Source: an uncultured Omnitrophica bacterium (GTDB taxonomy: Bacteria; Omnitrophota; Gorgyraeia; JACQQV01). Taken from it: a stretch of 64,000 bases of DNA. Location of the stretch: positions 70,498 to 134,497 of the forward strand of contig CAMTXH010000006.1 in the NCBI GenBank assembly GCA_947085655.1, in the 5' to 3' direction. Positions 8,977 to 27,781 of the stretch are shown here, piece by piece; within the stretch, counting starts at the first letter, position 1; every line of letters starts with the position of its first letter. The translations under genes and the position numbers were made by a program. The notes under the pieces are model-generated. The model was not told the origin of the DNA. It did not search any database and worked only from the letters and a program-made list of their open reading frames with translations.

Positions 8977-9313
8977 GAACGATTTGGTCTTTTATCTCAT
9001 CATAGGTTTTGGCTCCGATTCCTTCAATGTTTAAAAGGTCTTCCTTCCGCTCGAACCCCTGTTTTTTCTGAAAATCGACGATCCGCGCGGCGAGTGCCGG
9101 CCCGATCCGGGGAAGGCGGGCAAAATCTTCCGGAGTGCCCCGCCTCAACGAAACTTGCTTGGCCTTGACAAAAGCCGCTTCCTCGGAAGGAGATAAAACC
9201 TCAAGAGAAAAAGGGGTAAAGATCCTTGGTATCAAGTGAAGCGCCACGCCGGCTAAAAAGAGAGCACTTAAAAGAAGAGCTGCAATCCGTTCGGAACGCG
9301 TCGGACCTTTCAT
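8969..9313 (-). CDS. comEA: competence protein ComEA (HhH DNA-binding)
   Basis: Signal/TM segment then LPRIGPALAARIV...NIEGIGAKTYDEI HhH pair. Start taken as the internal ATG (MKGPTR...), which overlaps the leuS stop as ATGA. Confidence 0.8.
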   Translation of the reverse strand: MKGPTRSERIAALLLSALFLAGVALHLIPRIFTPFSLEVLSPSEEAAFVKAKQVSLRRGTPEDFARLPRIGPALAARIVDFQKKQGFERKEDLLNIEGIGAKTYDEIKDQIVLE

Positions 9314-11805: not shown

Positions 11806-11810
11806 CTGGA

Positions 11811-11839
11811 TTGTCTTTCGGGAATCTTTACCGTATAAT
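11811..11839 (+). promoter_or_regulatory. sigma70-like promoter for tRNA-Ala (TTGTCT-N17-TATAAT)
   Basis: -35 at 11811-11816 and -10 at 11834-11839, 13 nt before the tRNA 5' end. Confidence 0.4.
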
Positions 11840-11852
11840 AATATCCGATCGT

Positions 11853-11928
11853 GGGGCAGTGGTGCAGTTGGGAGCACACCTGAATGGCATTCAGGAGGTC
11901 AGGGGTTCGATCCCCCTCTGCTCCACCA
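11853..11928 (+). tRNA. tRNA-Ala (anticodon GGC)
   Basis: Hand-folded cloverleaf. Acceptor GGGGCAG/CTGCTCC with the G3:U70 alanine identity pair. Anticodon loop ATGGCAT. T-loop TTCGATC. CCA encoded. Confidence 0.9.
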
Positions 11929-12288: not shown

Positions 12289-12375
12289 GCCGAAGTGGCG
12301 GAATTGGTATACGCGCCGGTCTCAAAAACCGGTGGGGGCAACCCTGTGAGAGTTCGACCCTCTCCTTCGGCACCA
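12289..12375 (+). tRNA. tRNA-Leu (anticodon CAA), type II with long variable arm
   Basis: Acceptor GCCGAAG/CTTCGGC. Anticodon loop CTCAAAA. T-arm GAGAG-TTCGACC-CTCTC. CCA encoded. 87 nt. Confidence 0.9.
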
Positions 12376-12400
12376 CTTCTCTGAATTGCTCCAACGTCTT

Positions 12401-12536
12401 GAGGGTCGAAGGGAGCCGCGCGCATCCTGTGGATGAAAAGTCCCGAGCGAATAGCGAGGGACGCCAGCGCGACGGGTGGCCGACCGAGCGCGGGTTCAGG
12501 GACCCGCGCGAGGCGCCGACCCTCTCCTTCGGCACC
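12401..12536 (+). repeat. tRNA-associated element copy 2: same 107-bp core followed by a duplicate of the tRNA-Leu 3' end (cgaccctctccttcggcacc)
   Basis: Near-identical to 11951-12067, but the terminal ~19 nt copy tRNA-Leu rather than tRNA-Ala. The element ends 2 nt before the stop codon of the giant gene. Confidence 0.85.
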
Positions 12537-12538
12537 CC

Positions 12539-15500
12539 TTAGACCTTGTTGAGGTAATCGACATACGCCTCGAAGTAATCCGGGATGACCGGGACAGGGT
12601 CCACATAAATCTTATGCGTGAGGATGGTGAGGAAGGATTTGATGTCTTCCAGGGCTTTCTGGGGATCAGCCGTGCTGACAAATTCGGCAGCCGTATTCAC
12701 CAAAAGAGGGGCAAGATTCAGATAACGGTCATCCCCACCTTTTCGGGGTTCGAAGACCACGAGACGGATACCGGGATTTGAAATTCTAAGGCGCTTCGCT
12801 CTAAGATATCGCTCCCACGCCTTCATCTGGTCCTCACTCGAGACAATGACCAGATTGGAATTTTCCCCAAGGCGTAGTTTAAGGTTGTCCTGAAGAAGGT
12901 TCACCCAGAGAAACTCTTCAATTTGAAATCGATACTGGAGGGGAGGATCATTCTGGTAACGCGCTGACTCTTTTGCATCACCGTAATTTTCCAGAATGTC
13001 ATAGGTGATGACGGCATAAAACTGGTCGCGCCGGAGATGGAACCTTGCCAAATAATTCTCTACCTCCTGCATGGTCACGGTGGGATCCTCGATTAAAAGG
13101 ACATGTTTGAAAACACTCTCTTCGTTATTGAGGGAGTTTCCGGTCTCCCGCGCAAGACGATCCAAAGCCCAAGAGAAACTCTCCCCCATATCCTCCTTTA
13201 ACAGGGAGGATGGAAAAACAAGAATAAACGCCTCTCCGGTTTCCTTTAATCTTTCGCTCGCTTCGCGCATGGCCGGACTGACAGGACGCCGATGGAGCGG
13301 TTCATACGTGGTAAGCCACTCCGGTGTTTTCGCTACATACCGCTCGGCACCGTCCCGAACCCGAATCGGCTCCGGCTGATAAACAACAAGGGCCCGGTTG
13401 TCTTTCCATTCCCTGTGGCTGGCCACTTCGGTCTCCTCCGACAGCCGGTCATTCCGGCGGCTGAGAATGAGCTTTGCTGGTTCGCCGTGGTCCGCCCATC
13501 CGGCTATCTGTTCGGCAAGCCACCGCCTCTGCCCATTGAGGTCGTATGCGATCCCGTCGTCTCCGGCAAGAACCACGCTCTGATCTCCTAAGGGGAGTTC
13601 TCCTTCCAGAAACCATGCTTCCTCGCGTAAATAGGGTCTTATTTTCCGGTCTCCGTAAGAATTGGTAAATCTCCATGAAGGATCCACCCCCTCTGCCCGT
13701 TCGAAGGCCTGGAGGGTTTCATGATAAATCCCTCCCTTTGAAAGGACAATGTTTCTCCCTTTCTCATCCAATGCAGAGTTCTGCTCGGGAGTGGTCAGCC
13801 GGATTTCCCCCTGATCCGCAATCATGAACCAGGCATCCCCTCTTCCGAATCCGGAGACTTTCCGCTGGTCCCCCTTCTTCCGGATAAAGGCAACGGCGGC
13901 GGTTGCGCCCGATTCCATTTGATCCGTCAGTTTCCGAAGTGCTCGATCCGTCGCCCGATGGACCTCCATCATATTTTCGCCATGTTCCCGAACGGCTGCT
14001 TCAAAAAGAGAGGGGAGTCTTTGCTTAATCAAATGCGCCGCCTGTTCGTCACGATGCCCATCGATCACAGCAATTAAATCTCCTTCAACCTTTCCCACCC
14101 TTACCGGATGAACAAGGACGCGACTCTCCTGCCCCTCCCGTCCCTTGCCGATATCGGCCACATAGCTGATCTTCCCGCCCGAGACGGCATCCGTCACCCC
14201 AAATTCGTGCTCCACATTCCAACTGTATCGCTCACCGTTAAAAAGCCAAAATCCGTTTACAAACCTGTGATTCTCCATCCGCCATCGGCCGTCCAGATTT
14301 TCCTCGAAAAGTTCGATTCCCTTTTGAAGTTGTGCCTCCGTATGAAGTTTGTGCCCGAGTTCCGGATGATGCGTATGTCCCGCTCGGACCATTGCCAGTT
14401 CTTCCTGTGCCTGCTCGAGCGCTTCTTGAATTTTCGCCTCCATCAAAAGGTCCACGTCCAGAGGGTTTTTGGTCGCACTCTTGGTTTTACTGAGAATATG
14501 CCTTAGCACCACCTCCAGTCGAAGGAGAACATCCCCAATAATATCATTTTCAGGGCCGGGACCGACTTTCCGGGTAAAGTGAATCAGACGCTCCCCTGCC
14601 TTAACCCGCTGTGCCACGATACTTCCAAAACCTAGATGGGTCTCTTTTCCGTCCTCTACCTCGAAAACGGTGTTTGTGCCGATAAAGGTCGTCTCAAGAA
14701 TGATTCTCCCGGTGGAATCGGGACGATCCAGGATCACCGTGGAGCCGCCCCCCCAGTTGGGGGCATTCGCCACTGTTTTGGTTTCTCCTTTAACCTTGAA
14801 GGTAATTGGGCGTGCAATGAGGTTCAACGCCCTACTGGCAAGGTGGTGGTTTGTGTAAAGTCCCGAGGCAATGACATTCACATGGAGTGCGCCGATACCC
14901 CGGTTGACCCCCGCCACCGAGTCGTCAAAATGGCTCCTAAAGACTGTTGCGTAGGGCTCAAGGAGATGATCTCTTCCGATATTGCTGAATCTTGAGAGAA
15001 AAAGACTCCCTTCCGTCCGATCCCCGATAAACGAATTTTCAACACGGCCCATCCGCAAGCGGACTTCGTCTCCGAGTTGTGAAACGTTCCTGTCGGTCGA
15101 ATCAATCCACATCCGGACAAGATTCTCTTTCTTTCCGATGGCCGCCTGCTTGATTCGGGAACCCCAGATAAAAGTTTCTTCACCGACTACCGTATCTATC
15201 AGATGGGAGCCGAAAATTTGCGCTCCTTTCCGGATAACCGTCTTTCCTTCCAAAATCACCTCCGGCCCGATGATCGCTTCTTCTTCAATTTCAACCTGAT
15301 CGCCGATAATTGCTGTCGGGTCGATATCGGCAATAGCACCGAATTCCTCAAGAGGATTGACTCTCCTTTCACCCTTCGTCGGCTCAAACGTCCCTGGAAG
15401 ATGCGCCTCCGTTAGGATCGGTTCATAGTCCGGCACCCGGTCCCGCGGGATTTTCGGATCGTTTTCAGGAAGGTCTTTGAAAAGAGTTTGGCGGTAATCC

Positions 15501-18500
15501 GATGCAGAAATGCCTTCCAATGAGGCGATTCTTTTTAGATCGAGCGCTTCATGAGTCCATGTGCCGTTCTCAAATTTCCAACGGGAGTCTTTTGTTCCAT
15601 TCTGATATCGCCACGCACCGCTATCGATATGGAGCCGATAGGCCTCCCGCCATTTTTCAAGGAGGGCGATCCGCTCAGGGTCCTGGTCATCCGTGAATTT
15701 TGCCCTTTCCTCTGCAAGCTCCGCCTCCACGAGTGCTTTCCCGGTTTCAAGCATCTCAACCGGAAAGTCGTCCACTTCCGGCTTTTTCTCATCGGGCAGA
15801 GCATCAATCATTTCCTGCATCAGGGCAAAGACTGTGTCGGGGCTTTCGGTAAAAAGGAAAGGAACAGAAGTCGCTTTCCGGCTCAAACCGAACTTTGCCG
15901 CACCCGGAAGTGCCACGCCCCAATCATCCCATGCCGGTTTCCGCCGAACAGGAGAGCCGATCATTGAAAAGGGAGTTGCATGCGTGAGATTCCGGTTGGC
16001 CATCAGTGTCAGGGGATCGGAAGAGGGTTGTCCTCCGGCAAGGGCGATCCACCGTAAATAAGGACCCAAAATTGAAAGAGGATCGACCAAGAGGTAACCA
16101 TGGGCGCTCGATTCCGAGCCGTCGATTCCCCTGATCCGGATAGGCGGCAAAAGCGTTTTCGGATCCCGCGGGACAATTTGAATCATTTCCTCTTCCTTAA
16201 ATTCTTCATAAAGACCGTGTTTATGCGCTTTGAGCGGATTCAAGGTGCCGAGGTAACTCGAATCAACCACGTTCCGTCCGATATGGGCAATCGCTGGAAG
16301 GTTAAAGGTTTTACGGAGATGGAATCTCCGTCCGTCAAAGCGGAGGGAGACGATTCGATTGCGATGGAGAACCGAATCGATAAAGGCTTGGGCATTGAGA
16401 CGGTAGCCATGGCCGAGCCATGCCTCGCTCACTTCAATCGGAAGTTCGTGGCTTCCTTCAATAGAAACGTCATCCTCCGTATGGACAAGGGTCATTTTTG
16501 TATGAAGGAGCCGGTTCTCTTTCCCGATTTCGCTATTTTGATAGACGCCGCTTTCAATTTCCGTCCTTAAGCCGACGGTTGTATTAACGAGTCTTGCGCC
16601 ATTCACCCGCGCTTCCGGACCGACCCGCGTCTGGCTACCGGAGACCGTATATTCCCTTTTTCCGGAGAAATCCTTCCGGTCGAAGGACCAGTCCTCAAAC
16701 TTTCCAGGTTTACCGGTCGTCTCCAAAACAGCGTGGGAGACAATAGCGCGGTCTCCGACCACGGCTCCCGAAACAAAACTCGAATCGACCGCGGAGTCAA
16801 CGCCGAGTTCCACGGCATGATCCTTTGTCGCCTGAATGTAACTTCTCCCGGTGATCCGGGCACCTTGCAAGATCACGATCAGCCCTTCCCGCGCATCAAA
16901 CACCACTTCATCCCCGATGGCTCCGGCCCGCTCCAGTCCGAAAATATTCCGCGGGTCACCCAAGATTTTGTAGGCCCCGTCTTTGGCGCTCCGCCGCAGT
17001 TCGCGAAGCTGTCTCCTCAAATCGCTCAACGCCGAAGCCAGTTCTTCGCCTCGCTCCGATCGTCTTTCATGGGGATTCAGCCGCGCAAAACTGCTTTCGT
17101 GGGAAGAAATGCTTCTCCTTAACTCCTTGATCCGGGTGTGGAGATACCGTTCGGCTTCATACCGCTTCGGTTTTTTGTATTTCCTTGGGCCGCGGTATCC
17201 CCCGTCCCGGGCTTCTCCGGTCAGTCCGTCGCGGGCATTGGCCACACGGAGGCGCAGATCATCCAACTCTCTGATCCGGTCAATGTTTCCGGCGTCCTTC
17301 TTCTCTTCCTCGATGAGTTGACCGGCCTCACCGAACAATTGCTTTCGTTCATCTCGGATGGCGCTCAGCCGGTTCTGCGCGACACCCCCTTTTTCTTCTC
17401 TTGCGAGTTCCTCCAAAGAGGTGATAATTGCCTCAACGCGGGCAACGCGATTCCCGCCATCCTCAGCGTCCGGCGTTAAGTCATACCGTTCGTTTATCAA
17501 CTCCATAATTTCTTCCTGAATATCCCAAAGGCGCTTTTCAATCTCCGGGGTTATCTCTTTTGACCTGAGTTCTTCGCCCTCCAACTCCAATGCTCTTATA
17601 CGTGTGTTGATGTTGCGAATCTCGCGCATCCGGCTGCCCCCCTCCGGCGCTGTAAGGGTGCCTGCGGAAGGATCCCAGTGAGTGAGGTTTGCAAAGTGAA
17701 TCTCCTCTCCCTCCCCGAATTCTTCGGTCTCATGGTCGTCCCCCAGGAAGTAATGGCCTTCGGGAATCAGAGGTTTCTTCCGGTAAACCGTGTGCAAAAC
17801 GCCGGTAATGAGGCCGTTTTCGTCCGCTTCCGGCTCTGCGCCGATCACCTCCCGGACTTCGACTCCCAATGCCTTGAGACTTTCCCGAATATCCTCTCTT
17901 TCAAAGAAAAGGCGCGCTGCCGGCGCAAAACTTCTGGTCAAAATGGTGAGCCGGACCTGCTCATGTCCCCCTCTCCGTTTGAAGGCCTTCACCCACTCCA
18001 CAAATCTTGGATTCAGGGAATACCTTTTGGACATCTCTTCAAAATCATCCGTCCTGAGGAGTCTCGCATACATATTGAGATACGCCTGCCAACTGGCTTC
18101 GCCCGGATTCTCCCTGACTTCGTCGAGTCTCCGGCGGTGTTCTTCATCCACCCACGCCGGGTCGACCCCGGTCTTCTTCACCCATTCCCGGTAAGGGATC
18201 TCCTCGGAAACCACCGTCCCCTCAAAGTCGGCAAAGATATCGTTTTCGGCATAAACTCTTTCGGAGCCATCAAAGGCATTCTCCCTTTCTCCCAAAAACT
18301 CGACCCGGAAGGCCTCTGCCCAAGGAGGATGGAAAGGGGGGATTTTTCCCTTTCCTCCCTTTTCCCCTTCACCTCGCATGACGATTTCCATACCGATACT
18401 CGCCATCTGTCTGGCACGGTAACGGGCCGCCTTTGCTCTCTTTTCGATCTCTGGATCGCCGCTTCTTACTTCAAGCGCCGTCTCAAACGGATAAATGGCG

Positions 18501-21445
18501 TTAAAATCCTCAATTTCAGGCGGAGGAAGAAAAGGAAGATAAATGCCTGTCTCTTTATGTCGGGTTGAATAGGAACGGATCGCCTGAATGCCTTCATGGT
18601 ACACCGCGCGGTGGGAAGGGTGAGGGTCGTTTCTACTGTTTAGAAAAAAGACGACCTCTTTTCCCTTGAGGTTGCCTCCAAAATGGCCCATCAAGAAATC
18701 TTCGAGATGCGATTCCAAAAGCCGACCCCCCTCTTCAACGATTTGTGCATCGGACCAGTCAGGATGGGCCTTGTATAATTGGTGCCCGAGAAGGTTTGGC
18801 TCCGGAAGATCAAGAACCCTGCCGGACTTTATCTCCTCTTTAGCCCGGATGTCGGCAATGTCGCCCCGATCTTCCACTCCCGGTATGGCGGCGCCCGTAG
18901 AGGGAGAGAGAACAAAAATCCGGATCTTCACACCCGCCTTCGCTGCAAGGTGTGCCGTGGCACCCATGAGAACCGCCACATCATCCGGATGGGTGATAAT
19001 GGCGATGATCGGTGTCCCCTTCCTTCGCATCTCCTGGAACTTCCCGCTCCCCCAGATCAGAGGTCTGTTGGGAAGAAAACGATAGGTGCCTCCCTTCAGG
19101 TAGGCAAGCGGGAAGATTTCGGCATTCTGAACTCCAAGGTAGAGTCCGTTTTCCCTCCCCCGCGCCCGGGCCATCTCATCATAGGGCACGCGAAGCAGTT
19201 GGCTTTTGTGCGACTTAATTCCTTTCTCTTTGATGTCGGCTATGTTGTTGGTGTAAGGGACGATGATGCCCGGCTTGTCGAAGAGCTCGGAGGATTGATA
19301 AAAAACGCCCAGCGGAGACTCATTCCATTCCGAAACAGCCCGGCGGACGGCATTTTCAAGGGGAAAAAGATGAAGGGGTAAAAAAACAATGTCGAATGGA
19401 GAAGCCCGAATTTCTTTTTCGAGGGCCTCAAGTCCCTTTTGATCCTCTCCGAAAGCTACTTCCCTGGAAATTTGAAGATGTCGGAAATCATTTTTCCTTC
19501 CCCGAAGCCCGCTCAAAAAACTTCCTGCGTAAAAATCGGCATCCCGTTCGCCGATTTGTACCACCAGGGTCTTCATTCCCTCTGGAATAGGACTCTGATT
19601 GACATGGGGGAGTGTTTCGTCTTTAAAAAGAAACCTCGAGTTGGATTGAAGGAGATTCCGGATGCCTTCAAAGAATTCCCGTTTTCCCCCATCTTGTGCG
19701 CGACGACCGTCCAGTTCACCCCGGATAAGGCCTGTTGCGCCCCGTTTGAGCGCGGGGATTTGGCGCAGATTCTCCCCGGCCGGTCCCGCCTTCTCTTTCA
19801 GAATCTTATGATAAAGTTCAAGATCCGAGGCCTCCGTAATCTTCGGTGCAATCACCATATAGGACAAATTCTGTTCCTTCAAGAGTTTCGTAATCTGGGC
19901 GGTGTGGAATCCGCCTGCAATCAAGACGGCCAGGTCCACGCCTTCCTCCCGAACTTTACTGAGAGTATTGGCCACAAGGGCTTCATCCCGCTTCATCCCG
20001 ACTTTGTAGAAGGACTCGAGAAGTTCCAAATTGTCATCGATCACAGCAGTGTCCTGTGGAAAAGAGAGGGTTACATGATACTGATTCATTTTTTCAATCA
20101 GAAACGGCTTCCAAGTTTGTACGAGGAAGGTCTGGCGGTTTGCCTGATACGTCTCAAGGTCATCGGGTGAGAGATTGAGTTCCAGAAAGCTCAGGAGGAG
20201 ATCAAGACGGTCTGAAAGTTCAGAAAGTTCTTGTTCATCCGGCGAGGTGTAAAGATGGCTCTTAATTTCCTTTTCAAGAACGCGTCCTTCCCGGAAAAGT
20301 TCCACATGGTCCCGCCCGGCATAGAGAATGACATAATCGATGTACCGGTCCAGATCGCCGTGGGAACCGGGAGCCGGATCGTTTTTCTGGAGAACTTCCT
20401 TGAGAAACCCATAATACTCCCCGGGCCCTGTTTCGTTCATTTTATATTTGAGCCCCTTTTCGGCAAGAAGGGTAAGTTCCTCCTTGGAAAGAACCTGTGT
20501 CAACTTCCCGATGAGTGCCTGGTGCTGGCCGTCCACCTTTTCAAAATTGATGCTCTTCTCAAGGAGAGAGGCCTGCAGGAAATTGTCGAAATTGGGGTAT
20601 TGGAAAAGAGGGATGCTGTAACGCCGGGCCAGATCTCCCAAATACTGATAATATTCCACCGCCTGAATCTTCCCTTTGTCATATTCCTCTTTTTTCCGCT
20701 CAAGGGCTTTTATCTCCGGGGAGTAGATGTCGACTTTCAGAGTGTCTGCAATCGCCTCAAGCGCCCGGGCCTTTTCCAAGGATTTTGCCTTGATTCCATC
20801 CACTTTGAAGAAGATGCCCAAGTTCTGGTCGTAAAGCGCTTCATTCTCGATGCCCCAGAGGGTAATCGGTTTGTCCGAAACAATATCAAGGTATTCCTCC
20901 CCCGAAATTTTTCCGAGTTTCAGGTATTTCTCGGCAACCTCCAGACGCCTTTCCGGCGTCGCTTCGGTCCGCAAAAAGGAAAGGCTCGTATCTCCGCTTC
21001 CCCCCTCCACAAGAATCAGACGGAGACCATGCTCCTTGACGAGTTGGCCCAGGATGTTCGCGAGGTTTTTTTGCGCTTCATAATGGACATGAACATCCTG
21101 AATATGGATGATCAGGGGAAGGGGATTTCCTTCGTAGGTTTCGGAAATCCGGCCGTATTCCGGAGGGATCTGGATGGCCTGGGCGAGCGTCTTGGGACGC
21201 TCGCCGAGAAGCGTTAAAGGATCGACGGCCGGGGTAGACTTGACCGGTTTGATATCGGAGCGGGCGGTGACTGTCTCGGTCTTTGAATCGAACGCCTTTT
21301 TTTCCTCAACGGTCTGGAAGATGCTTTTCGCATGGAGAGGGACGTCGGAGAGGAAAAGGAAAGAAACGGCCAAACCCAAAAGCAAAAATCTTTGCCGCTT
21401 CCCTCTTCTAGTTGGTCGAAACGCCATTCCCTTTTCACCACCCAT
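12539..21445 (-). CDS. giant secreted multidomain protein (2,968 aa)
   Basis: Uninterrupted 8.9-kb ORF with signal peptide. Contains an N-module homologous to the 862-aa protein at 22981-25569 (a possible Tiki/TraB/ChaN-like two-His fold), an LmbE/PIG-L-like segment, a long coiled-coil, left-handed beta-helix repeats and a PP2C-like segment. Supporting motifs are listed under the giant-protein domain finding. Confidence 0.85.
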   Translation of the reverse strand: MGGEKGMAFRPTRRGKRQRFLLLGLAVSFLFLSDVPLHAKSIFQTVEEKKAFDSKTETVTARSDIKPVKSTPAVDPLTLLGERPKTLAQAIQIPPEYGRISETYEGNPLPLIIHIQDVHVHYEAQKNLANILGQLVKEHGLRLILVEGGSGDTSLSFLRTEATPERRLEVAEKYLKLGKISGEEYLDIVSDKPITLWGIENEALYDQNLGIFFKVDGIKAKSLEKARALEAIADTLKVDIYSPEIKALERKKEEYDKGKIQAVEYYQYLGDLARRYSIPLFQYPNFDNFLQASLLEKSINFEKVDGQHQALIGKLTQVLSKEELTLLAEKGLKYKMNETGPGEYYGFLKEVLQKNDPAPGSHGDLDRYIDYVILYAGRDHVELFREGRVLEKEIKSHLYTSPDEQELSELSDRLDLLLSFLELNLSPDDLETYQANRQTFLVQTWKPFLIEKMNQYHVTLSFPQDTAVIDDNLELLESFYKVGMKRDEALVANTLSKVREEGVDLAVLIAGGFHTAQITKLLKEQNLSYMVIAPKITEASDLELYHKILKEKAGPAGENLRQIPALKRGATGLIRGELDGRRAQDGGKREFFEGIRNLLQSNSRFLFKDETLPHVNQSPIPEGMKTLVVQIGERDADFYAGSFLSGLRGRKNDFRHLQISREVAFGEDQKGLEALEKEIRASPFDIVFLPLHLFPLENAVRRAVSEWNESPLGVFYQSSELFDKPGIIVPYTNNIADIKEKGIKSHKSQLLRVPYDEMARARGRENGLYLGVQNAEIFPLAYLKGGTYRFLPNRPLIWGSGKFQEMRRKGTPIIAIITHPDDVAVLMGATAHLAAKAGVKIRIFVLSPSTGAAIPGVEDRGDIADIRAKEEIKSGRVLDLPEPNLLGHQLYKAHPDWSDAQIVEEGGRLLESHLEDFLMGHFGGNLKGKEVVFFLNSRNDPHPSHRAVYHEGIQAIRSYSTRHKETGIYLPFLPPPEIEDFNAIYPFETALEVRSGDPEIEKRAKAARYRARQMASIGMEIVMRGEGEKGGKGKIPPFHPPWAEAFRVEFLGERENAFDGSERVYAENDIFADFEGTVVSEEIPYREWVKKTGVDPAWVDEEHRRRLDEVRENPGEASWQAYLNMYARLLRTDDFEEMSKRYSLNPRFVEWVKAFKRRGGHEQVRLTILTRSFAPAARLFFEREDIRESLKALGVEVREVIGAEPEADENGLITGVLHTVYRKKPLIPEGHYFLGDDHETEEFGEGEEIHFANLTHWDPSAGTLTAPEGGSRMREIRNINTRIRALELEGEELRSKEITPEIEKRLWDIQEEIMELINERYDLTPDAEDGGNRVARVEAIITSLEELAREEKGGVAQNRLSAIRDERKQLFGEAGQLIEEEKKDAGNIDRIRELDDLRLRVANARDGLTGEARDGGYRGPRKYKKPKRYEAERYLHTRIKELRRSISSHESSFARLNPHERRSERGEELASALSDLRRQLRELRRSAKDGAYKILGDPRNIFGLERAGAIGDEVVFDAREGLIVILQGARITGRSYIQATKDHAVELGVDSAVDSSFVSGAVVGDRAIVSHAVLETTGKPGKFEDWSFDRKDFSGKREYTVSGSQTRVGPEARVNGARLVNTTVGLRTEIESGVYQNSEIGKENRLLHTKMTLVHTEDDVSIEGSHELPIEVSEAWLGHGYRLNAQAFIDSVLHRNRIVSLRFDGRRFHLRKTFNLPAIAHIGRNVVDSSYLGTLNPLKAHKHGLYEEFKEEEMIQIVPRDPKTLLPPIRIRGIDGSESSAHGYLLVDPLSILGPYLRWIALAGGQPSSDPLTLMANRNLTHATPFSMIGSPVRRKPAWDDWGVALPGAAKFGLSRKATSVPFLFTESPDTVFALMQEMIDALPDEKKPEVDDFPVEMLETGKALVEAELAEERAKFTDDQDPERIALLEKWREAYRLHIDSGAWRYQNGTKDSRWKFENGTWTHEALDLKRIASLEGISASDYRQTLFKDLPENDPKIPRDRVPDYEPILTEAHLPGTFEPTKGERRVNPLEEFGAIADIDPTAIIGDQVEIEEEAIIGPEVILEGKTVIRKGAQIFGSHLIDTVVGEETFIWGSRIKQAAIGKKENLVRMWIDSTDRNVSQLGDEVRLRMGRVENSFIGDRTEGSLFLSRFSNIGRDHLLEPYATVFRSHFDDSVAGVNRGIGALHVNVIASGLYTNHHLASRALNLIARPITFKVKGETKTVANAPNWGGGSTVILDRPDSTGRIILETTFIGTNTVFEVEDGKETHLGFGSIVAQRVKAGERLIHFTRKVGPGPENDIIGDVLLRLEVVLRHILSKTKSATKNPLDVDLLMEAKIQEALEQAQEELAMVRAGHTHHPELGHKLHTEAQLQKGIELFEENLDGRWRMENHRFVNGFWLFNGERYSWNVEHEFGVTDAVSGGKISYVADIGKGREGQESRVLVHPVRVGKVEGDLIAVIDGHRDEQAAHLIKQRLPSLFEAAVREHGENMMEVHRATDRALRKLTDQMESGATAAVAFIRKKGDQRKVSGFGRGDAWFMIADQGEIRLTTPEQNSALDEKGRNIVLSKGGIYHETLQAFERAEGVDPSWRFTNSYGDRKIRPYLREEAWFLEGELPLGDQSVVLAGDDGIAYDLNGQRRWLAEQIAGWADHGEPAKLILSRRNDRLSEETEVASHREWKDNRALVVYQPEPIRVRDGAERYVAKTPEWLTTYEPLHRRPVSPAMREASERLKETGEAFILVFPSSLLKEDMGESFSWALDRLARETGNSLNNEESVFKHVLLIEDPTVTMQEVENYLARFHLRRDQFYAVITYDILENYGDAKESARYQNDPPLQYRFQIEEFLWVNLLQDNLKLRLGENSNLVIVSSEDQMKAWERYLRAKRLRISNPGIRLVVFEPRKGGDDRYLNLAPLLVNTAAEFVSTADPQKALEDIKSFLTILTHKIYVDPVPVIPDYFEAYVDYLNKV

Positions 21446-21447
21446 CC

Positions 21448-22959
21448 TTAGAGTCTTCGGAGTGTTTCCCGGAATTTGCGGACTGCCTCAATCGCTTCCT
21501 CCTCGAATCCGGTGGAAAGGACCTCGACCGGAATGGTCCAGGTGAGTCCCTCCTCGATTCTCGCAATCAAGGCACTGTTTAGATGATCAAGGCCGACCTC
21601 CGTATCCTTGACCGGCAAATCAAACGTAAAAGCAACGGAATTCTCTCGCCCTTCAAATAGCCTGGCAACTTCCCTTCTGGCAAAAATCAGGTTTTTCCGT
21701 TCGGGGGAAGGGCCGCCTTTTTCCTCGAGTTTTTGCTGAATGTAGCTCTCAATGCCGGCCACTTCCGATAAACGTTCGGCCGGGACGAACATCCCAAAAT
21801 CCTCCGGTGTCAGGTCCACGGGAAGACCCGTCTTCTTTGAAGCAAACGCGTTCATCTCGTTGAAAAAGTTGCTTGTCTTTTCCGCATCCATGGCTTGAAG
21901 CACCCCCTCACGCGGGGTCAGCGGCAGGAAAGCGGTCACAATCCCGCTTCCGACTTTTCCGAAACGGGGTTCCTGCCGGACGCGTCTCCAGAGGGCTGCC
22001 CATGCATCGAAACTGTAATAGTAATAAGCGGGTTCGGACACCAAGACAACCGGTGCGTTAACCCTTTTCAACTGGTTTAAAATCACACCCGAAAGCGGGC
22101 TGTCCACCGTCGGAAAGAGCTTCGGACCGACATTTTCAAGTGCGGAAAGCCGCGCTTCGGCCTCGATAATTTGCTCTTGAAGAGCAGTCTCTTCTTCGGG
22201 ATGGGTCGCAAAATAATCCGAATTGATGCCGAGGGCTGTTTTGAAATCCCGCCGAAGTCTCTGCGCATCTTTGACCCGGTCGGAAAACGTGCTTCCGGCT
22301 CCTTTTCCATATAAAAGAAAGGGGGCGTCAATGTGACTTAATATTCTAACAGAAGCGGCAAGGTAGTCCGGGAGTTCTTTCTGGCGGGCCAAGAGAGCCC
22401 CTAAAACATCCTCCGGGATGGCTCGCCGCGTATCGACACGGACATGGACACGAATCAAATCGCCTGTTTCGGAACTGGAAATTTTGACTTCAACCGGCTT
22501 CCGGTCCGGAAGGGAACGCTCCCCTAACGCAAAAGTCACTTCGGAACTGGCAGTCTCAGGATGGGAACTCGACACGCGCCCCTCGAATATTCTTTGAAGC
22601 TGTGCCAACGTCAGCGCTTCTCTCTCTTTTAAGAGGCCCTGCCCCATGTACCGTTCCATGATATCCTCATAATCGGCTGAATCAACATGTCTTCTTCGTG
22701 CTTCACCGCTCAAGGGGACATTGGTTTCGCGATACCGTTTCTCCCGGTCATCCCCGAGACGGTTCGCGCCGTCCCGAAGGGAGAGGGCCTGTTCCGCGGC
22801 AATCAAATCATTTTGGAGATTCTGCATGAGGCCGCCGTCCTTCTCCGCCATGGGAGGCCGGTAATGATCCTCAGCCGGGGCACCCCAGGCCGGCATGACG
22901 GCAAAGAAAATTCCCGCGATCAGCATCGAAATCATTTTTTGAAGAAATGAGCGATTCAT
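21448..22959 (-). CDS. secreted protein, paralog of the C-terminal module of the 862-aa protein
   Basis: Signal peptide. Shares AEKDGGLMQNLQ, FGKxGSG, VDLTxEDFG and a ...LRETL C-terminal block with 22981-25569. Confidence 0.8.
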   Translation of the reverse strand: MNRSFLQKMISMLIAGIFFAVMPAWGAPAEDHYRPPMAEKDGGLMQNLQNDLIAAEQALSLRDGANRLGDDREKRYRETNVPLSGEARRRHVDSADYEDIMERYMGQGLLKEREALTLAQLQRIFEGRVSSSHPETASSEVTFALGERSLPDRKPVEVKISSSETGDLIRVHVRVDTRRAIPEDVLGALLARQKELPDYLAASVRILSHIDAPFLLYGKGAGSTFSDRVKDAQRLRRDFKTALGINSDYFATHPEEETALQEQIIEAEARLSALENVGPKLFPTVDSPLSGVILNQLKRVNAPVVLVSEPAYYYYSFDAWAALWRRVRQEPRFGKVGSGIVTAFLPLTPREGVLQAMDAEKTSNFFNEMNAFASKKTGLPVDLTPEDFGMFVPAERLSEVAGIESYIQQKLEEKGGPSPERKNLIFARREVARLFEGRENSVAFTFDLPVKDTEVGLDHLNSALIARIEEGLTWTIPVEVLSTGFEEEAIEAVRKFRETLRRL

Positions 22960-22980
22960 TGTTTCTCCTTTTTCTAAAGA

Positions 22981-25569
22981 TTATAAGTTGATGAGTGTCT
23001 CCCGGAGGGTCCGGAGGGCCGCCTCCGCATCTTCGGAAACAGTCCAGACTTTCGCCTCAATGAAAGTGCTCCGTCCGACCGCGAACGATAAAAGTTCCTC
23101 CAGATTCCGATATCCGACCTGATCCCCGACCTGATTCGATACAAACGGCGACTCAACGGTGAAGGCAACAAAGGAAGGAAGCGACGGAGCGAGTCTCTCG
23201 GCCACCTGCTTTCTGGCAAACATCCGGGTAAGAGGGCGTCCCGCTTCCTCCTGGATATGCCGGCTCGTTGCTTCGTGGTCCGAAAGGAGTGCCGGTGGAA
23301 CCACAACGCCGAAATCCTCAAGTGTCAGGTCCACATTCTTTCCGGTGTATCTTTTGGCAAATGCGCTCAGTATCTCAAGTGCTTTGGAGATCTTCTCCAA
23401 ATCAACACCCCTAAGGGCATCTCCCGGCTGATTAGAAATGGCGTATGGAAGAAGGGCTGAAATGACTCCGCTTCCTTTTTTCCCGAACTCTGGATCCTGC
23501 CTGCGATACCGCCAATAGTCCACGTAAAGGTCCGGATTAAAAGCAAAGTAAGCCAAGTCGTATCCCACAACAATGGGGTTATCCACATTCCTTGCCTGCG
23601 CCAAGACATTCGGTGAAAGGAGGTCGGATGTCAGAAAGATGTTGCGGCCGATCAGAAGATCGTCGCTCAAACGAGTCCCCCCGTCACCCGCTTGACCGGT
23701 CAGGTCGTTCCGTTCGTCTATCAAGTCTCTAATCTTCTGCTGTACCGCCGCAATTTTTGCCCTTTCGGGATCGGCTGCCGGGAGTGCGAGAAGTCTTTGT
23801 TCTTCTCTTCCCAGTTCGCCGATTTCGCGAATGACTTCGTCCAAATAATCCTCGCCTTCATCGTCCTCACGGACCCCCCCGTCGCGGACCGTGACAGCGG
23901 CAATCTCATCCTGAAGATTTTGCATGAGCCCGCCGTCTTTCTCGGCGGTTGGCTGGCGGAGTTGCCCCACGATTAAATGCGATTTTTCCTTCAAAATGGT
24001 GTAATAAAGTTCCGGATTTCCCGCTTCCGTGATTCGGGGCGAAATGACAATATGGGAAATACCCTGCTCTCTCAAAATCTGTGTCAGCCCCGGCGTATGA
24101 AATCCTCCTGTAATCAGGACGGCGAACGTGACTTTCTCCTTTTTCATTTCCCTCATCGAATTTTCAACAAATGCCACATCCCGCGCCTGCGCAATCCGGT
24201 AAAAGCGATCCATCGTCTTGAGATGCTCATCGACGCTGCCGACTTCCTGCGGAATGGCAATCTCCAAACGGTGTTCGTTGATTTTACCCTCCAGATAAGG
24301 GATAAATGTCTTGACGGAAAATCTCAGGCGGTTTTTCTGGTAAAGGGCGAAGTCATCCGGTGAAATTTTGAGCCGGAAAAGGCCCGAAAGAAGCCTCAGG
24401 TGTTTCGAAATGGCGGCGAGCTGCCTTTCGTCTTCGGAAGTAAAGAGTTTTTCCCGAACCGCCTGTTCCAGCCGGTCCCCCTCCTTGAAAAGTTCCGAGT
24501 GCTGGATATCCCCATATAAGGAAAGATAGCGGACATATTTTTCAAGATTCGGGTAATCTTCAAGGGCCACGCTCTTTTCGGAAGCCACATTCGCCACATG
24601 ACCGTAGTATCGTCGCTGGGAAACTTTCCCTTCCTGATAGGCGAGACTCTGACTCACCAATAGATCCAATTCCTCCTGCGTCAGGTCATCCGTCAATGTT
24701 TCGATGAGCCGGTTCCGCTCCTCGTCAACCTGTCCGAAATCAATGGCCTTCTCCAGTCGGTAGGCCTGAAGGAGTCGCTCCACGTTCGGATATCCCTCCG
24801 CCCCGCCGTAAGCGGCCAGGTATTCGTAATAGTCCACGAGTTCCATCTGTTCCGTCTCGTATGCCTCGCGCATCTTCTCAAGGTCGAGATGGGCGGAACT
24901 GTAAATGGTTTTTTTGAGTGTTTCCACCGCTTCCTGGAGGCGGTCGAGCTGGTCTAGTGCCACTTTTTTCAGTCGTTCGACCTCCAGAAAGACCCGGAAA
25001 TTCTCCTCGTAAAGCTCCGCGTCTTCAATCCCCTGCCGGATGATCGGATAATCGCTCACCAGTTCCAGATATTCGTCCCCCGCAATGAGTCCCTTCCGGA
25101 GATACCGTTCTGCCACCTCCGTCCGTGCCTCTTTTGAGCCGAGTTTCCGTAGCGAAGAAAGATCCCCCCGGATATCCCCCCCTTCCACAAGAATTAACTT
25201 CACGTCGTTGTTCCGGATGAGAGACTCCAGAATGGAAGCAAGGTTTTTCTGTGCTTCGTAGTGCACATGGGCATCTTGAATATGGATCAGAGTCTGTTCG
25301 GAGTTTCCTTCGTAGATATCGACGATCCGGCCGTAGGCCTCCGGGATTTGAATCTCACCTAATCCGAGGGAACGCAAAAGAAACGCTTCTTTTTGGGGAG
25401 AGGTTGTCTGAATCGGATCCGGCAGCACAGGTGCCACGACCCGCGCCTGCTGAAAGATGCTTCTCTCAGGCGGATCGGCCCATGCCATGGTTCCGGCACC
25501 GACTACACCGAGCACGATAAGAAGCAAAAGGCTCTTTTCTTTTATTAGCTTCTTCTTTATACCCTTCAC
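22981..25569 (-). CDS. secreted two-module protein (N-module shared with the giant protein, C-module shared with the 503-aa protein)
   Basis: Signal peptide. About 550 aa are collinear with giant-protein residues ~40-590 (IHIQDAHVHYEAQKNLA...ILVEGG...ITGGFHT...ELYYTILKEK). Confidence 0.8.
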   Translation of the reverse strand: MKGIKKKLIKEKSLLLLIVLGVVGAGTMAWADPPERSIFQQARVVAPVLPDPIQTTSPQKEAFLLRSLGLGEIQIPEAYGRIVDIYEGNSEQTLIHIQDAHVHYEAQKNLASILESLIRNNDVKLILVEGGDIRGDLSSLRKLGSKEARTEVAERYLRKGLIAGDEYLELVSDYPIIRQGIEDAELYEENFRVFLEVERLKKVALDQLDRLQEAVETLKKTIYSSAHLDLEKMREAYETEQMELVDYYEYLAAYGGAEGYPNVERLLQAYRLEKAIDFGQVDEERNRLIETLTDDLTQEELDLLVSQSLAYQEGKVSQRRYYGHVANVASEKSVALEDYPNLEKYVRYLSLYGDIQHSELFKEGDRLEQAVREKLFTSEDERQLAAISKHLRLLSGLFRLKISPDDFALYQKNRLRFSVKTFIPYLEGKINEHRLEIAIPQEVGSVDEHLKTMDRFYRIAQARDVAFVENSMREMKKEKVTFAVLITGGFHTPGLTQILREQGISHIVISPRITEAGNPELYYTILKEKSHLIVGQLRQPTAEKDGGLMQNLQDEIAAVTVRDGGVREDDEGEDYLDEVIREIGELGREEQRLLALPAADPERAKIAAVQQKIRDLIDERNDLTGQAGDGGTRLSDDLLIGRNIFLTSDLLSPNVLAQARNVDNPIVVGYDLAYFAFNPDLYVDYWRYRRQDPEFGKKGSGVISALLPYAISNQPGDALRGVDLEKISKALEILSAFAKRYTGKNVDLTLEDFGVVVPPALLSDHEATSRHIQEEAGRPLTRMFARKQVAERLAPSLPSFVAFTVESPFVSNQVGDQVGYRNLEELLSFAVGRSTFIEAKVWTVSEDAEAALRTLRETLINL

Positions 25570-25852
25570 TTTACACCATACACCTTACACCGTTTTATTG
25601 GGGTGGCGGGCGGAATAGGTTGGGAAGGATGGGGGTCCAGGCCCAAGCCCTATCCCACCTGCCATCCCAAAGGGATTGCAAGTTTATAAAAGTTCTGAAG
25701 AAACTGGTTAAAAAAAGAACCCCCGATCCTGGGAAAAGTATATCACACCCCAGGGGGGATGTCAAGGTATGAAAGTCAACTTAAAAAAACATGTAACGTG
25801 TTTAAAACTAAATAGTTAAGTAAATTTAAAAACGACATTTTGTCTCGATTAA

Positions 25853-26857
25853 CTATTCCTTTTCTTCCTTTTTCCTCCCCCCTTTTGCCTCGCTTTTTTT
25901 CTCTTCAACCGTTTCAAACGCCCCCATTTTCCGGAATTTTTCGTACCGCTCCTCAAGAAGTTTTTCCTTTGGAAGTTTTTGAAGAACTTTCAGGTGCTTT
26001 CCGACCGCTTCTTTCAGGGCAGCGGCAGTTTTTTCCGCGTCATGGTGGGCCCCGCCGAGCGGCTCCGGAATGATCTCATCAATCACCCCCAACTCCAGGA
26101 GGTCCTGGGCAGTCAGTTTCAGGGCACTGGCCGCATCGGGGGCGCGGGCACGGTCCTTCCAGAGGATCGCGGCACACCCTTCCGGAGAAATCACGGAATA
26201 ATACGCATTTTCCAGCACCAACGTGCGGTCGCCGACGCCGATCCCGAGCGCCCCGCCGCTTCCTCCCTCCCCAATCACCACGACGATAATCGGAACGGCC
26301 AGACTGATCATCTCCCTGAGATTGTAGGCAATCGCTTGGGCCTGTCCTCGCTCTTCGGCCCCAACTCCCGGGTAGGCTCCGGGCGTATCCACAAGACAAA
26401 GGATGGGATGGTCAAACTTCTCCGCCAATTTCATGATGCGCATCGCCTTGCGGTATCCTTCCGGATGGGCGCTCCCGAAATTTCGCAAGAGGTTCTCTTT
26501 GGTGTCCCGTCCCTTTTGATGACCGATGACGGTAAGGGCAGTCCCGTCGAATTTGGCGAAGCCGGTGATAATCGCCTGGTCATCCCGGAAGGCGCGATCG
26601 CCGTGGAGCTCGACGAAATCGCTCATGATGAGGGAAATATAATCCATGGAATAAGGTCGCTGGGGATGTCGGGCAATCTGGACGCGCTGCCAGGGAGTGA
26701 GATTTTCGTAAACAGACTCGCGGAGTTCGATCAGTTTTTTCTCGAGCGATTTAATTTCCCCATCGAGGCCGATCTTTCCTTTCGACGCAAGACTCCTCAG
26801 TTCGGCAATCTGTTTCTCGAGCTCGGTAATCGGCTTTTCGAAGTTAAGGTCTGCCAC
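25853..26857 (-). CDS. accA: acetyl-CoA carboxylase carboxyltransferase subunit alpha
   Basis: Highly conserved AccA sequence ([15 protein letters not shown]...[11 protein letters not shown]). Confidence 0.9.
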
Positions 26858-27781
26858 TTAATCACCAATCGTGACTTCCGTTCCGATCGGGATCAACGCG
26901 TAGAGTTCTTCCACATCCTTGTTGTGCATCCGGACACATCCGGCGGTAATGGCACTTCCGATGGATGCCGGATCCCGTGTCCCGTGAATACCGTATCCCG
27001 GTTCGTTGATCCCCATCCAGCGGCTCCCCAAAACGTTCTCGGGACTGTCCGACGGAACAACGGCCCCCAACGTGTACCAAACCGGATTGATGAGCTTATT
27101 GGTGATTTTGTACGTTCCGACCGGGGTGGAATCGTTTTCGCCTGTGGCAACGGGATAGATTTTGAAAATCTCTTCCCCCGCTTTCAGGGTTAGCTGATTC
27201 TGGGATTTATCTACCAGGATGCTGAAGGAAACCGAAGGCACTTTCAACTTCATGCCGGGGCGGATCAGCGCTGATTTCAGCCCGTTCGCCTTCATGAGGA
27301 GTTCAATGGTGGTGCCATGAGTCCTTGCAATCTTCCCAAGGCTATCCCCCGGCTGAACCGTCACCTTTTTATAAAGAGGGGTCATGGTGGGAGAATAAAG
27401 AATCGCCACGTTGACTTCTCCCAACCGTTCCTGCGCCAGGACAACCGAATCGGTATTGGGAAACATCTGAACGATCCTTTGATACGTTTCCTTGGCCCCC
27501 AAAAGATCCCCCCGACGGAGTTGGACATTGCCGATACCGAGAGTCCCTTTCGCCATCAACTCCGGAGAGGGGGCTTCTTGCGAAATGTCGGTATAAATCC
27601 GGAGGGCTTCATCCCACTGTTCTCCTGAAAGTGCCGCTTCTGCTTTCCGGAATAGTCCCTCATACCGGTTTTGCTGAAAAAGACTGGCCCCTTCCTCACG
27701 GGGTCCGAAAACAAACCGCACCCCCAATCCCGCCGCCAAAAGGCCGACCAGAACAAACACCAGTCCCCAACGTCTTGTCAT
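26858..27781 (-). CDS. L,D-transpeptidase with LysM domain (YkuD family)
   Basis: N-terminal TM segment and TPR-like region. LysM (VTVQPGDSLGKIA). YkuD catalytic region (GIHGT...SAGCVRM). Confidence 0.8.
   Translation of the reverse strand: MTRRWGLVFVLVGLLAAGLGVRFVFGPREEGASLFQQNRYEGLFRKAEAALSGEQWDEALRIYTDISQEAPSPELMAKGTLGIGNVQLRRGDLLGAKETYQRIVQMFPNTDSVVLAQERLGEVNVAILYSPTMTPLYKKVTVQPGDSLGKIARTHGTTIELLMKANGLKSALIRPGMKLKVPSVSFSILVDKSQNQLTLKAGEEIFKIYPVATGENDSTPVGTYKITNKLINPVWYTLGAVVPSDSPENVLGSRWMGINEPGYGIHGTRDPASIGSAITAGCVRMHNKDVEELYALIPIGTEVTIGD

Follow-up and report, generated by a model that had tools for sequence, protein, structure and literature searches.

A conserved, probable Omnitrophota operon encoding a Tiki/TraB-type module, an orphan domain and a long, predicted exported multi-enzyme protein joined by DGG linkers

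Omnitrophota is a widespread uncultured bacterial phylum, thought to consist of predators or parasites, which holds the record for gene length, and the role and processing of its very long exported proteins are an open question. Many unrelated enzyme domains, phosphoglucomutase and HAD types among them, are tiled behind a signal peptide in the "multi-enzyme metabolic cluster" proteins (bioRxiv 10.64898/2026.06.07.730766) and in the Archaeovorins (bioRxiv 10.1101/2023.11.21.568195). In the former preprint, which gives prevalence and topology counts for proteins of at least 10 thousand amino acids (kaa), the long proteins were first read as intracellular metabolic clusters, a reading which the topology predictions contradict for the longest of them, of 147,155 amino acids (aa). 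An Omnitrophota giant-gene preprint has also proposed that the giants might be cut into pieces by C39 or S8 peptidase domains at their N-termini. The present analysis concerns three consecutive minus-strand genes in a stretch of 64,000 nucleotides (nt) from an uncultured Omnitrophica bacterium (GenBank assembly GCA_947085655.1, contig CAMTXH010000006.1, positions 70,498 to 134,497; hereafter the window), which encode proteins of 862 aa (p862), 503 aa (p503) and 2,968 aa (the giant). The giant is built in the same style as the long proteins of the phylum, at a smaller scale. It shares with them the tiling of unrelated enzyme domains behind a signal peptide, and differs in its length of about 3 kaa, below the 10-kaa scale and the >90-kb (>30-kaa) genes of West-Roberts et al., in having no internal transmembrane helices, and in its location in a syntenic housekeeping locus rather than beside type II secretion system/pilus and glycoside-hydrolase genes.

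The arrangement is rather probably that of an exported enzyme set acting on amino-sugar polymers, a reading which rests mostly on anatomy rather than on biochemistry. A conserved, lineage-specific operon of a small Omnitrophota clade would make three Sec-exported, cysteine-free proteins. One copy of an orphan module (C) would be fused in frame to a module (N) supplying ester or peptide hydrolase activity, while a second, divergent C copy carrying an insertion would stay free. The long protein would start with a second, anciently duplicated N-module, followed by a dead and a live PIG-L/LmbE domain, a possible HAD domain, two left-handed beta-helices, a PP2C phosphatase domain and a C-terminal domain, the modules being joined by helical linkers carrying [K/R]-D-G-[G/A]. 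Together, as a single enzyme set, the products would work extracytoplasmically on amino-sugar-containing polymers, whether these belong to the envelope of the producing cell or to the surface of a host or prey.

The initial annotation of this DNA had described the three open reading frames (ORFs), their spacing and the two modules shared between them, and the comparison of the proteins bore this out. The coordinates are exact, with gaps of 21 nt between p862 and p503 and of 2 nt between p503 and the giant. Composition-adjusted BLASTP aligned p862 aa 73-572 with giant aa 91-594 (42% identity, E=3e-113) and p862 aa 618-862 with p503 aa 255-503 (35% identity, E=2e-30). At the DNA level the two N-modules are still recognisably similar only around the conserved catalytic motif (79% over 61 nt), which together with the strong BLASTP values shows the paralogy to be old and real, not compositional; every module also has orthologues in other genomes. 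The two smaller proteins have in common one further, separate block, AEKDGGLMQNLQ, identical in 12/12 residues; the DNA encoding it differs at five sites, all of them synonymous, which suggests selection on the peptide and not very recent gene conversion. No significant BLAST match was found between p503 and the giant, and the profile-profile comparison of the C family with the C-terminal half of the giant (1,483 aa) was negative, therefore the giant is without a hidden C-module. The tight spacing, the common strand and the gene order kept in other genomes make it likely that the three genes form a single operon.

The N-module had been compared, on its two His-containing motifs, with the Tiki/TraB/GumN/ChaN/Ere enzymes, and the resemblance is upheld by the alpha/beta core of an AlphaFold2 model and by a conserved set of active-site residues. 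In this superfamily the active site consists of E-x-H, Glu and His with an essential Arg, the same set holding for the Ere enzymes, according to the RRSP structure paper (PMC6254334). The relationship is visible by structure only. No Pfam or NCBIfam model matched the N-modules of the window proteins above threshold; the best relative reached 26.2 bits (cut-off 27.7) against the curated superfamily models (PF04187, PF01963, PF05139), weak sub-threshold PF04187 matches occurred in 8 of 44 members, and the family profile searched against Protein Data Bank (PDB) sequences gave only spurious EF-hand-like matches, to a helical insertion. The model, made from 44 family members (predicted local distance difference test, pLDDT, 89.2; predicted template modelling score 0.81), contains a parallel beta-sheet flanked by helices, this alpha/beta core being interrupted by an all-helical insertion of about 290 residues. 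H101, E129 (VEGG), R463 and H491 (GGFH), in p862 numbering, belong to the 14 positions invariant in the 44 sequences, and position 99, two residues before H101 in IQ[D/E]AH, is D or E. The model puts the conserved residues at the ends of strands or in the helix that comes before, in agreement with the expected topology.

On the strength of this model, N is a new family within the Tiki/TraB/erythromycin-esterase/ChaN hydrolase superfamily and not a member of an existing one. With its apparently intact 2His/2Glu/Arg site the module is probably catalytically active, presumably as either an ester or a peptide hydrolase. From the described members of the superfamily (Tiki, TraB, PrgY, GumN, erythromycin esterase, ChaN, RRSP and HopBA1; the Pfam clan of PF01963, PF04187 and PF05139) the N family differs by the helical insertion, by being almost confined to Omnitrophota, its homologues coming almost entirely from Candidatus Omnitrophota metagenome bins, and by occurring either stand-alone or at the head of long multi-domain proteins. 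About 17 of 88 members head proteins of more than 900 aa, one of these with a PGK-like domain; when eight of the long fusion proteins were scanned with Pfam, the sole informative match was a weak PGK. P0071 is an N-family protein fused to a PGK-like domain.

The C-module is an orphan; the initial annotation had recognised none of the three proteins as a characterised family. Several later domains of the giant do match families. A word-indexed search with p503 returned p503 alone and also missed known orthologues of block D (the part of the long protein from the beta-helix region to the C-terminus), and an exhaustive HMMER search was used for the C family. Among 1.84 billion cluster representatives it gave 10 clusters at E<=1e-30, and all those that could be placed lie in the same type of locus; scans of genomes and metagenomes added no new C-family loci. 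All stand-alone full-length members have a signal peptide ending in a PAWG-like site, followed by the motif ...AE..(DGG)..M..L..DL.A.DGG.R. The AlphaFold2 model (pLDDT 72) combines an alpha/beta core with an N-terminal part that is helical and disordered, and C is, as far as these searches and the model indicate, an orphan alpha/beta domain restricted to one Omnitrophota clade. An insertion of about 180 aa (aa ~75-255) in p503, which is not present in the C-module of p862, is shared with the C protein of locus L005. In the core the window copies are 42-45% and 36-41% identical to canonical C proteins, which are 47-62% identical among themselves; this greater divergence fits a duplication followed by relaxation or specialisation. 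More distant members are a 427-aa protein of L003 and, in L007, the C-terminal part of a protein of 1,123 aa (hhalign probability 97.9%), 48% identical to each other. Both of these extra signal-peptide proteins (L003:11709-12992 and L007:3514-6885) also hold a DGG-helix-DGG cassette.

Among the domains that follow the N-module of the giant, the PIG-L/LmbE deacetylase scored 39.1 and 42.7 bits against PF02585 (cut-off 28.2, gathering score). Known PIG-L/LmbE members are soluble cytoplasmic enzymes. With archaeal diacetylchitobiose deacetylase, MshB and BshB the giant shares the Pfam match and the metal motifs, which read THPDD (818-822) and HxxH (HPSH, 942-945); the nearest solved relative is diacetylchitobiose deacetylase (E=0.005 against PDB), the alignment covering the HPDD region. 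The giant's domain differs from these enzymes in lying within a predicted exported protein of 2,968 aa and in having a degenerate copy ahead of it. The possible HAD-like block was found in this genome only, being absent from L001, L003 and L005, and its motif I reads DFEGT where the family has DxDxT, the second Asp being replaced by Glu.

The second of two left-handed beta-helix regions (LbH1 and LbH2) has the hexapeptide-repeat pattern: NCBIfam GlmU matched it locally (E=1e-9) and its profile matched LpxA, GlmU and LpxD in PDB (E=4e-7), with Pfam Hexapep at 22.5 bits, below the cut-off of 27, and only the beta-helix part aligning, with no full-length equivalog match. No domain is assigned to the region between LbH1 and LbH2 (aa 1700-2030). 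A tandem duplication of LbH1 and LbH2 was considered and is unsupported, as BLAST of the giant against itself shows no internal repeats. Stand-alone proteins of 820-840 aa (L009:8001-10520, P0104; P0105), situated outside the locus, are 24-25% identical to the LbH1-to-LbH2 part, which suggests that the double beta-helix block is an independent unit; P0104 adjoins asnS, asnA and TRAP-transporter genes. For the probable PP2C domain the single sequence scored 19.8 bits (Pfam cut-off 20.3), and a profile of four orthologues matched PP2C structures in PDB with E=1e-7 over about 245 residues. The last part of the giant (aa 2701-2968) has no family match in the Pfam and NCBIfam scans.

The modules meet at a recurrent motif, [A/S/T]-x-[K/R/E/Q]-D-G-[G/A]-x-[R/K], often preceded by ...L-T-G-x-A..., which was found at every module boundary in all loci and also near the N-terminus of mature C proteins. 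Its strict form occurs six times in the window (long ORFs in six frames), every time in one of the three operon genes. Homology blocks between orthologous long proteins start and stop at these motifs: block D begins at aa 1486 in the window, 1142 in L001, 694 in L005 and 2020 in L002, and the motif AR/AK/SK-DG[G/A]-Y[K/Q]ILG stands at 1489, 1145, 697 and 2023, respectively. The cassette DGG-helix-helix-LTGxAGDGG recurs in four different proteins, and all three motifs in the C model fall in segments with pLDDT below 50. The helical DGG linkers thus appear to be the places at which modules are gained, lost, split or fused among related genomes. Their likeness to double-glycine leaders was also considered. 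Both have a helix followed by GG or GA; the leaders have hydrophobic residues at -4, -7 and -12, whereas position -4 of the DGG sites is K, R or E in nearly all cases and Asp at -3 is invariant. The motif was rejected as a leader cut by a C39 peptidase because position -4 is charged and because scans of the operon and of 20 genes around it gave no C39 domain.

A survey of genomes had been proposed as a check of the locus. Six further distinct Omnitrophota loci, in independent assemblies, have the same N, C and long-gene arrangement. The closest is L001, from a groundwater Omnitrophota metagenome-assembled genome. The order accA / N / C / long protein / leuS can be followed completely in four (L001, L002, L003/L004 and L005/L006), and L007/L008 show the order N, C, long gene alone because the contigs end. 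The scan of genome contigs gave a single related locus and the metagenome scan only loci already known; across block D the orthologues are 48-67% identical.

All these related loci encode N and C separately, with a signal peptide on each protein, and among the loci compared the N+C fusion was seen in this genome only. The free-standing C protein of L001 matches p862 aa 537-862 over its full length (37% identity), and the free-standing N protein of the same locus stops at a point equivalent to p862 aa ~534, the fusion junction thus joining the end of N to about residue 39 of the stand-alone C. It follows from this alignment that p862 would have arisen by an in-frame deletion, one that would have taken out the N stop codon, a spacer of about 22 nt, the signal peptide of C and about 7 residues of its mature part. 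As a fusion of the Rosetta-stone type, p862 argues that N and C act together.

All three proteins had been said to carry signal peptides, and inspection of the sequences agrees, each having a basic n-region, a hydrophobic core and an AWA, AWG or LHA site. Cleavage-type sites (PAWG, AWA, xHA) are conserved across the families, and the only hydrophobic segment of the giant is N-terminal. Cysteine is absent from all 4,333 aa of the three proteins, compared with 0.91% (118/12,958) in 35 other genes of the window (P about 6e-18), and their orthologues in L001-L007 have mostly 0-1 Cys, one N orthologue (L003) having 2. Cysteine avoidance is typical of exported proteins, and its completeness here supports an extracytoplasmic location. 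All three products are predicted to be exported by Sec with signal cleavage. Enzyme types normally using cytoplasmic cofactors thereby lie behind export signals, a paradox also noted for the longest proteins of the phylum.

The N family was also followed beyond the operon. Six more distant members on long contigs were inspected, too few for statistics, and five of the six lie beside a long neighbour (2,000 to 47,725 aa). In L014 and L016 the N-family genes are on the same strand as the adjoining giant genes, and in L019 both flanking products have a signal peptide and then K[A/K]-DGG-[D/S] at residues 63-70. To judge from these neighbours, the N family may generally accompany long exported proteins in Omnitrophota. 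A term search of the text of both giant-gene preprints (bioRxiv 10.64898/2026.06.07.730766 and 10.1101/2023.11.21.568195) found no mention of a Tiki/ChaN-type companion, the DGG motif and the C family not having been searched for by name. In the papers searched, no mention was found of the N+C fusion, the C family, the DGG junction motif or the association of the N family with long genes; of these, only the Tiki/ChaN-type neighbour was searched for by name.

Several observations weigh against an exported enzyme set. The assignments of the HAD domain and of LbH1 are weak. Acyltransferases of the left-handed beta-helix type normally need cytoplasmic acyl-CoA or acyl-ACP, which is hard to fit with an exported location; the beta-helix of the giant may be structural rather than a transferase. 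The first metal motif of the PP2C domain reads QES and not ED in the giant (QED in two orthologues). The signal peptides were judged by eye, and the catalytic residues of N were assigned from the order of the motifs and their place in the secondary structure, not from superposed coordinates.

The strongest of the other explanations, clearly less probable than the exported enzyme set, is that the products are polyproteins: the DGG motifs would be cleavage sites and the Tiki-like N-module the protease, which after export would trim the N-termini of C and cut the long protein and the N+C fusion. If such cleavage occurs, fusion and fission of genes would be nearly neutral, which would explain the shuffling. 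The motif stands not only at every module junction but also 15-40 residues past the signal peptide of the stand-alone partners, unexpected for a mere linker; it was kept at the N-C fusion point, it lies in exposed, low-confidence segments of the C model, and AEKDGGLMQNLQ is identical, with only synonymous DNA differences, in paralogues which are 35% identical overall. Both neighbours of the distant N gene in L019 likewise encode a signal peptide and then the motif. Tiki trims the N-terminus of Wnt. Known proteolytic members of the superfamily cut near N-termini or before Asp, RRSP cutting between Tyr32 and Asp33 (PMC6254334), and peptidase domains that cut Omnitrophota giants have already been proposed in the giant-gene preprint, there as N-terminal domains. 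However, most other N-family proteins, the long fusions included, contain no DGG; fragments of true giants beside N genes are not enriched for it; and the superfamily also has esterases (Ere) and non-enzymes (ChaN), so the fold does not imply a protease. That the N family and the [K/R]-D-G-[G/A] motif form a maturation system, in which exported Omnitrophota long proteins are cut by a Tiki-type protease encoded beside them and as their first module, is somewhat less probable still. If true for the genes of 8,000 to 48,000 aa flanked by N genes, it would make the "giant proteins" of Omnitrophota precursors and not single functional molecules.

It is unlikely that the giant is a multi-effector protein for a host or prey cell, comparable to MARTX or polymorphic toxins, whose modules dependent on cytoplasmic cofactors (LbH, PP2C and HAD; in relatives PGM/PMM, GlmS-like or glycolytic ones) would act inside the other cell and whose repertoire would vary by recombination at linkers. 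MARTX toxins are likewise long and exported, with interchangeable enzyme modules between conserved linkers and a repertoire that varies among strains, and their effector RRSP has the Tiki fold (PMC6254334). The modules of the orthologues vary, PIG-L being absent in L005, PGM_PMM present in L002 and the HAD block found here only; enzymes of cytoplasmic type stand behind signal peptides, the proteins are almost cysteine-free, and Omnitrophota have been proposed as predators or parasites (PMC10066038). Yet the giant has a predicted Sec signal peptide, and no RTX repeats, cysteine protease domain, translocation domain or type I secretion signal were found in it (Pfam and NCBIfam, whole protein and segments). 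The locus is chromosomal and strictly syntenic, in a housekeeping neighbourhood (accA, leuS, mnmE, purH). Neither a dedicated secretion system nor an immunity gene lies next to it, and it is moderately conserved, not hypervariable, to judge from block D.

A membrane-tethered cytoplasmic scaffold, held by an uncleaved N-terminal anchor and with its modules facing the cytoplasm as a metabolic assembly for sugar nucleotides or amino sugars, is quite improbable. It would suit the normally cytoplasmic enzyme types (PIG-L/LmbE, LbH and PP2C here; PGM/PMM, GlmS-like, FBA-TIM-GAPDH and PGK in relatives) and the first reading of such proteins as intracellular metabolic clusters (bioRxiv 10.64898/2026.06.07.730766), which that preprint's own topology predictions contradict for its longest protein. 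Basic residues precede the hydrophobic segment, which by the positive-inside rule places the bulk outside, and the AxA-type cleavage motifs are conserved. The total avoidance of cysteine also speaks against the scaffold, as does the extracytoplasmic location of many Tiki-superfamily relatives. An artefact of compositional or low-complexity blocks, which the initial annotation had named as the finding that would overturn it, or of mis-assembly or fused pseudogenes, is refuted by the composition-adjusted E values, by intact orthologous ORFs in independent assemblies from different samples, and by the finding of the exact protein on several contigs in the sequence collection.

The exported enzyme set holds no new principle; the locus is an unusually tractable entry to the open question on the largest bacterial proteins. 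It is a compact version, of about 3 kaa, of the giant architecture, small enough to be expressed and tested, and it comes with at least five natural variants differing by whole modules, a junction motif, a candidate processing or partner enzyme and a gene fusion linking two partners. The occurrence of the N family beside long genes gives a concrete handle on how the long proteins of Omnitrophota are handled.

Table 1. Features of the operon, with positions in the window, and the related loci used for comparison
Feature	Position	Strand	Description
Gene 1, p862	22981..25569	minus	862 aa; N+C fusion made up of signal peptide, Tiki-like N-module, linker with DGG motifs and C-module
Signal peptide of p862	25477..25569	minus	aa 1-31, ...GTMAWA, cleavage before DPPERSIF; by inspection, single N-terminal hydrophobic peak, conserved in family
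N-module of p862	23962..25353	minus	aa 73-536; predicted alpha/beta core of the Tiki/TraB/Ere/ChaN superfamily, interrupted by a helical insertion of ~290 aa; key residues D99-x-H101, E129, R463, H491
Junction/linker of p862	23650..23961	minus	aa 537-640; AEK-DGG, VR-DGG, AG-DGG with helices between them; equivalent to the N-terminus of mature stand-alone C
C-core of p862	22984..23649	minus	aa 641-862; orphan alpha/beta domain; FGKxGSG, VDLTxEDFG, FAR motifs
Gene 2, p503	21448..22959	minus	503 aa; stand-alone C paralogue with signal peptide, DGG motif, insertion of ~180 aa and C-core
N-terminal motif of mature p503	22762..22860	minus	aa 34-66; RPPMAEK-DGG-LMQNLQ...LR-DGA-NR
C-core of p503	21451..22131	minus	aa 277-503
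Gene 3, giant	12539..21445	minus	2,968 aa; predicted exported multi-enzyme protein with paralogous N-module at its head
Signal peptide of giant	21329..21445	minus	aa 1-39, RRGKRQRF-LLLGLAVSFLFL-SDVPLHA, cleavage before KSIF; sole hydrophobic segment in 2,968 aa
N-module of giant	19694..21175	minus	aa 91-584; IHIQDVH 113-119, LVEGG 145, GGFHT 511; ends at AQ-DGG (585)
Degenerate LmbE/PIG-L-like domain	19046..19648	minus	aa ~600-800; without the metal motif, with the C-terminal ...SHKSQ motif; tentative, from a third stretch aligned to diacetylchitobiose deacetylase
PIG-L/LmbE deacetylase domain	18581..19003	minus	aa 815-955; HPDD 819-822, HPSH 942-945; PF02585
Possible HAD-IB-like domain	17789..18238	minus	aa 1070-1219; TIGR01488 E=5.5e-4, 19.9 bits (cut-off 45)
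Helical linker cassettes with DGG motifs	16973..17653	minus	aa 1265-1491; AE-DGG 1329, AR-DGG 1414, AK-DGA 1489; cassette common to L007_G1 and L003_C2
First left-handed beta-helix region (LbH1)	16346..16972	minus	aa ~1492-1700; weak alt_bact_glmU match, E about 1e-3; kept in L001, L002, L005
Second left-handed beta-helix (LbH2)	15011..15340	minus	aa 2036-2145; like the C-terminal domain of GlmU/LpxA/LpxD
Probable PP2C-type phosphatase domain	13406..14149	minus	aa ~2433-2680; DGH 2462, GD 2536, DDG 2629, DN 2682
C-terminal domain of giant	12542..13345	minus	aa 2701-2968; VR-DGA-ERYVA ahead of it; conserved in L001, L005
Candidate sigma-70-like promoter	25737..25765	minus	TTGACA-17-TG-TATACT, TG extension, 11/12 matches; best in 12300-26000
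L001			N 579 aa, C 337 aa, long protein 2,681 aa
L002			N 526 aa, C 324 aa, long protein 3,467 aa with PIG-L, PGM_PMM_I/III, LbH, PP2C
L003/L004			N 565 aa, C-like protein 427 aa, C 288 aa, long protein 1,986 aa with PIG-L, PP2C
L005/L006			N 535 aa, C 467 aa, long protein 2,155 aa with LbH, PP2C; PIG-L absent
L007/L008			N 551 aa, C 392 aa; long gene split into 1,123 aa and >906 aa
L013			N-family gene without long neighbour
L014 (JGI Ga0129287_10000002)	L014:1-13593		Stand-alone N-family gene between 47,725-aa and 8,571-aa genes
L016 (CAYJVG010000001.1)	L016:1-7771		Stand-alone N-family gene directly after 37,855-aa gene
L017	L017:6001-13725		N-family gene, then 2,846-aa signal-peptide protein with GlmS-like GATase/SIS domains
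L018			N-family gene ahead of 2,032-aa gene
L019	L019:399-9861		N-family gene flanked by 629-aa gene and 2,680-aa gene with FBP aldolase, TIM, GAPDH

The AT-rich spacer upstream of p862, which had been proposed to hold the promoter, measures 283 bp up to accA; its GC content is 42% against 53% for the window, falling to 34% in 25700-25852, and the best sigma-70-like site lies inside it. At the other end, the 163 nt between the stop codon of the giant and the convergent tRNA-Leu (12376-12538) are GC-rich, with a hairpin GCGCGGGT...ACCCGCGC that has no T-run, and a canonical intrinsic terminator was not found in this interval 3' of the operon.

The window is a housekeeping region of a diderm, signs of which are LptE, BamD and MurJ. 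Downstream of the operon lie uvrC, murJ, a holA-like gene, lptE, bamD, comEC, leuS, tRNA-Ala and tRNA-Leu, the two tRNAs being the only RNA genes there in Rfam and tRNA scans; upstream lie accA, genes for a LysM-YkuD L,D-transpeptidase, DUF212 and a PilT-like ATPase, mnmE, a Mur-ligase/FolC-like gene, purH and others. The L,D-transpeptidase, which has TPR repeats, and the PilT-like ATPase (26858-27781 and 28258-29352, both minus strand) are encoded just upstream of accA and are syntenic with the operon in L001, L002, L003/L004 and L005, the loci with a visible upstream flank. The transpeptidase was considered as an anchor for the operon proteins and set aside, synteny being the sole support and accA and the promoter region lying between.

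The public gene calls for the two smaller proteins start later than the longest ORFs: p862 is called as 848 aa (P0001; start 25527 against 25569, 14 codons later) and p503 as 495 aa (P0089; start 22935 against 22959, 8 codons later). The longer form of p862 restores the basic n-region and the longer form of p503 has a GGAG Shine-Dalgarno sequence 8 nt upstream, therefore the database starts are probably too short. The longest leuS ORF (9310-11877, minus strand) is overlapped in its first 25 nt by tRNA-Ala (11853-11928, plus strand), and the true start of leuS is probably a downstream codon.

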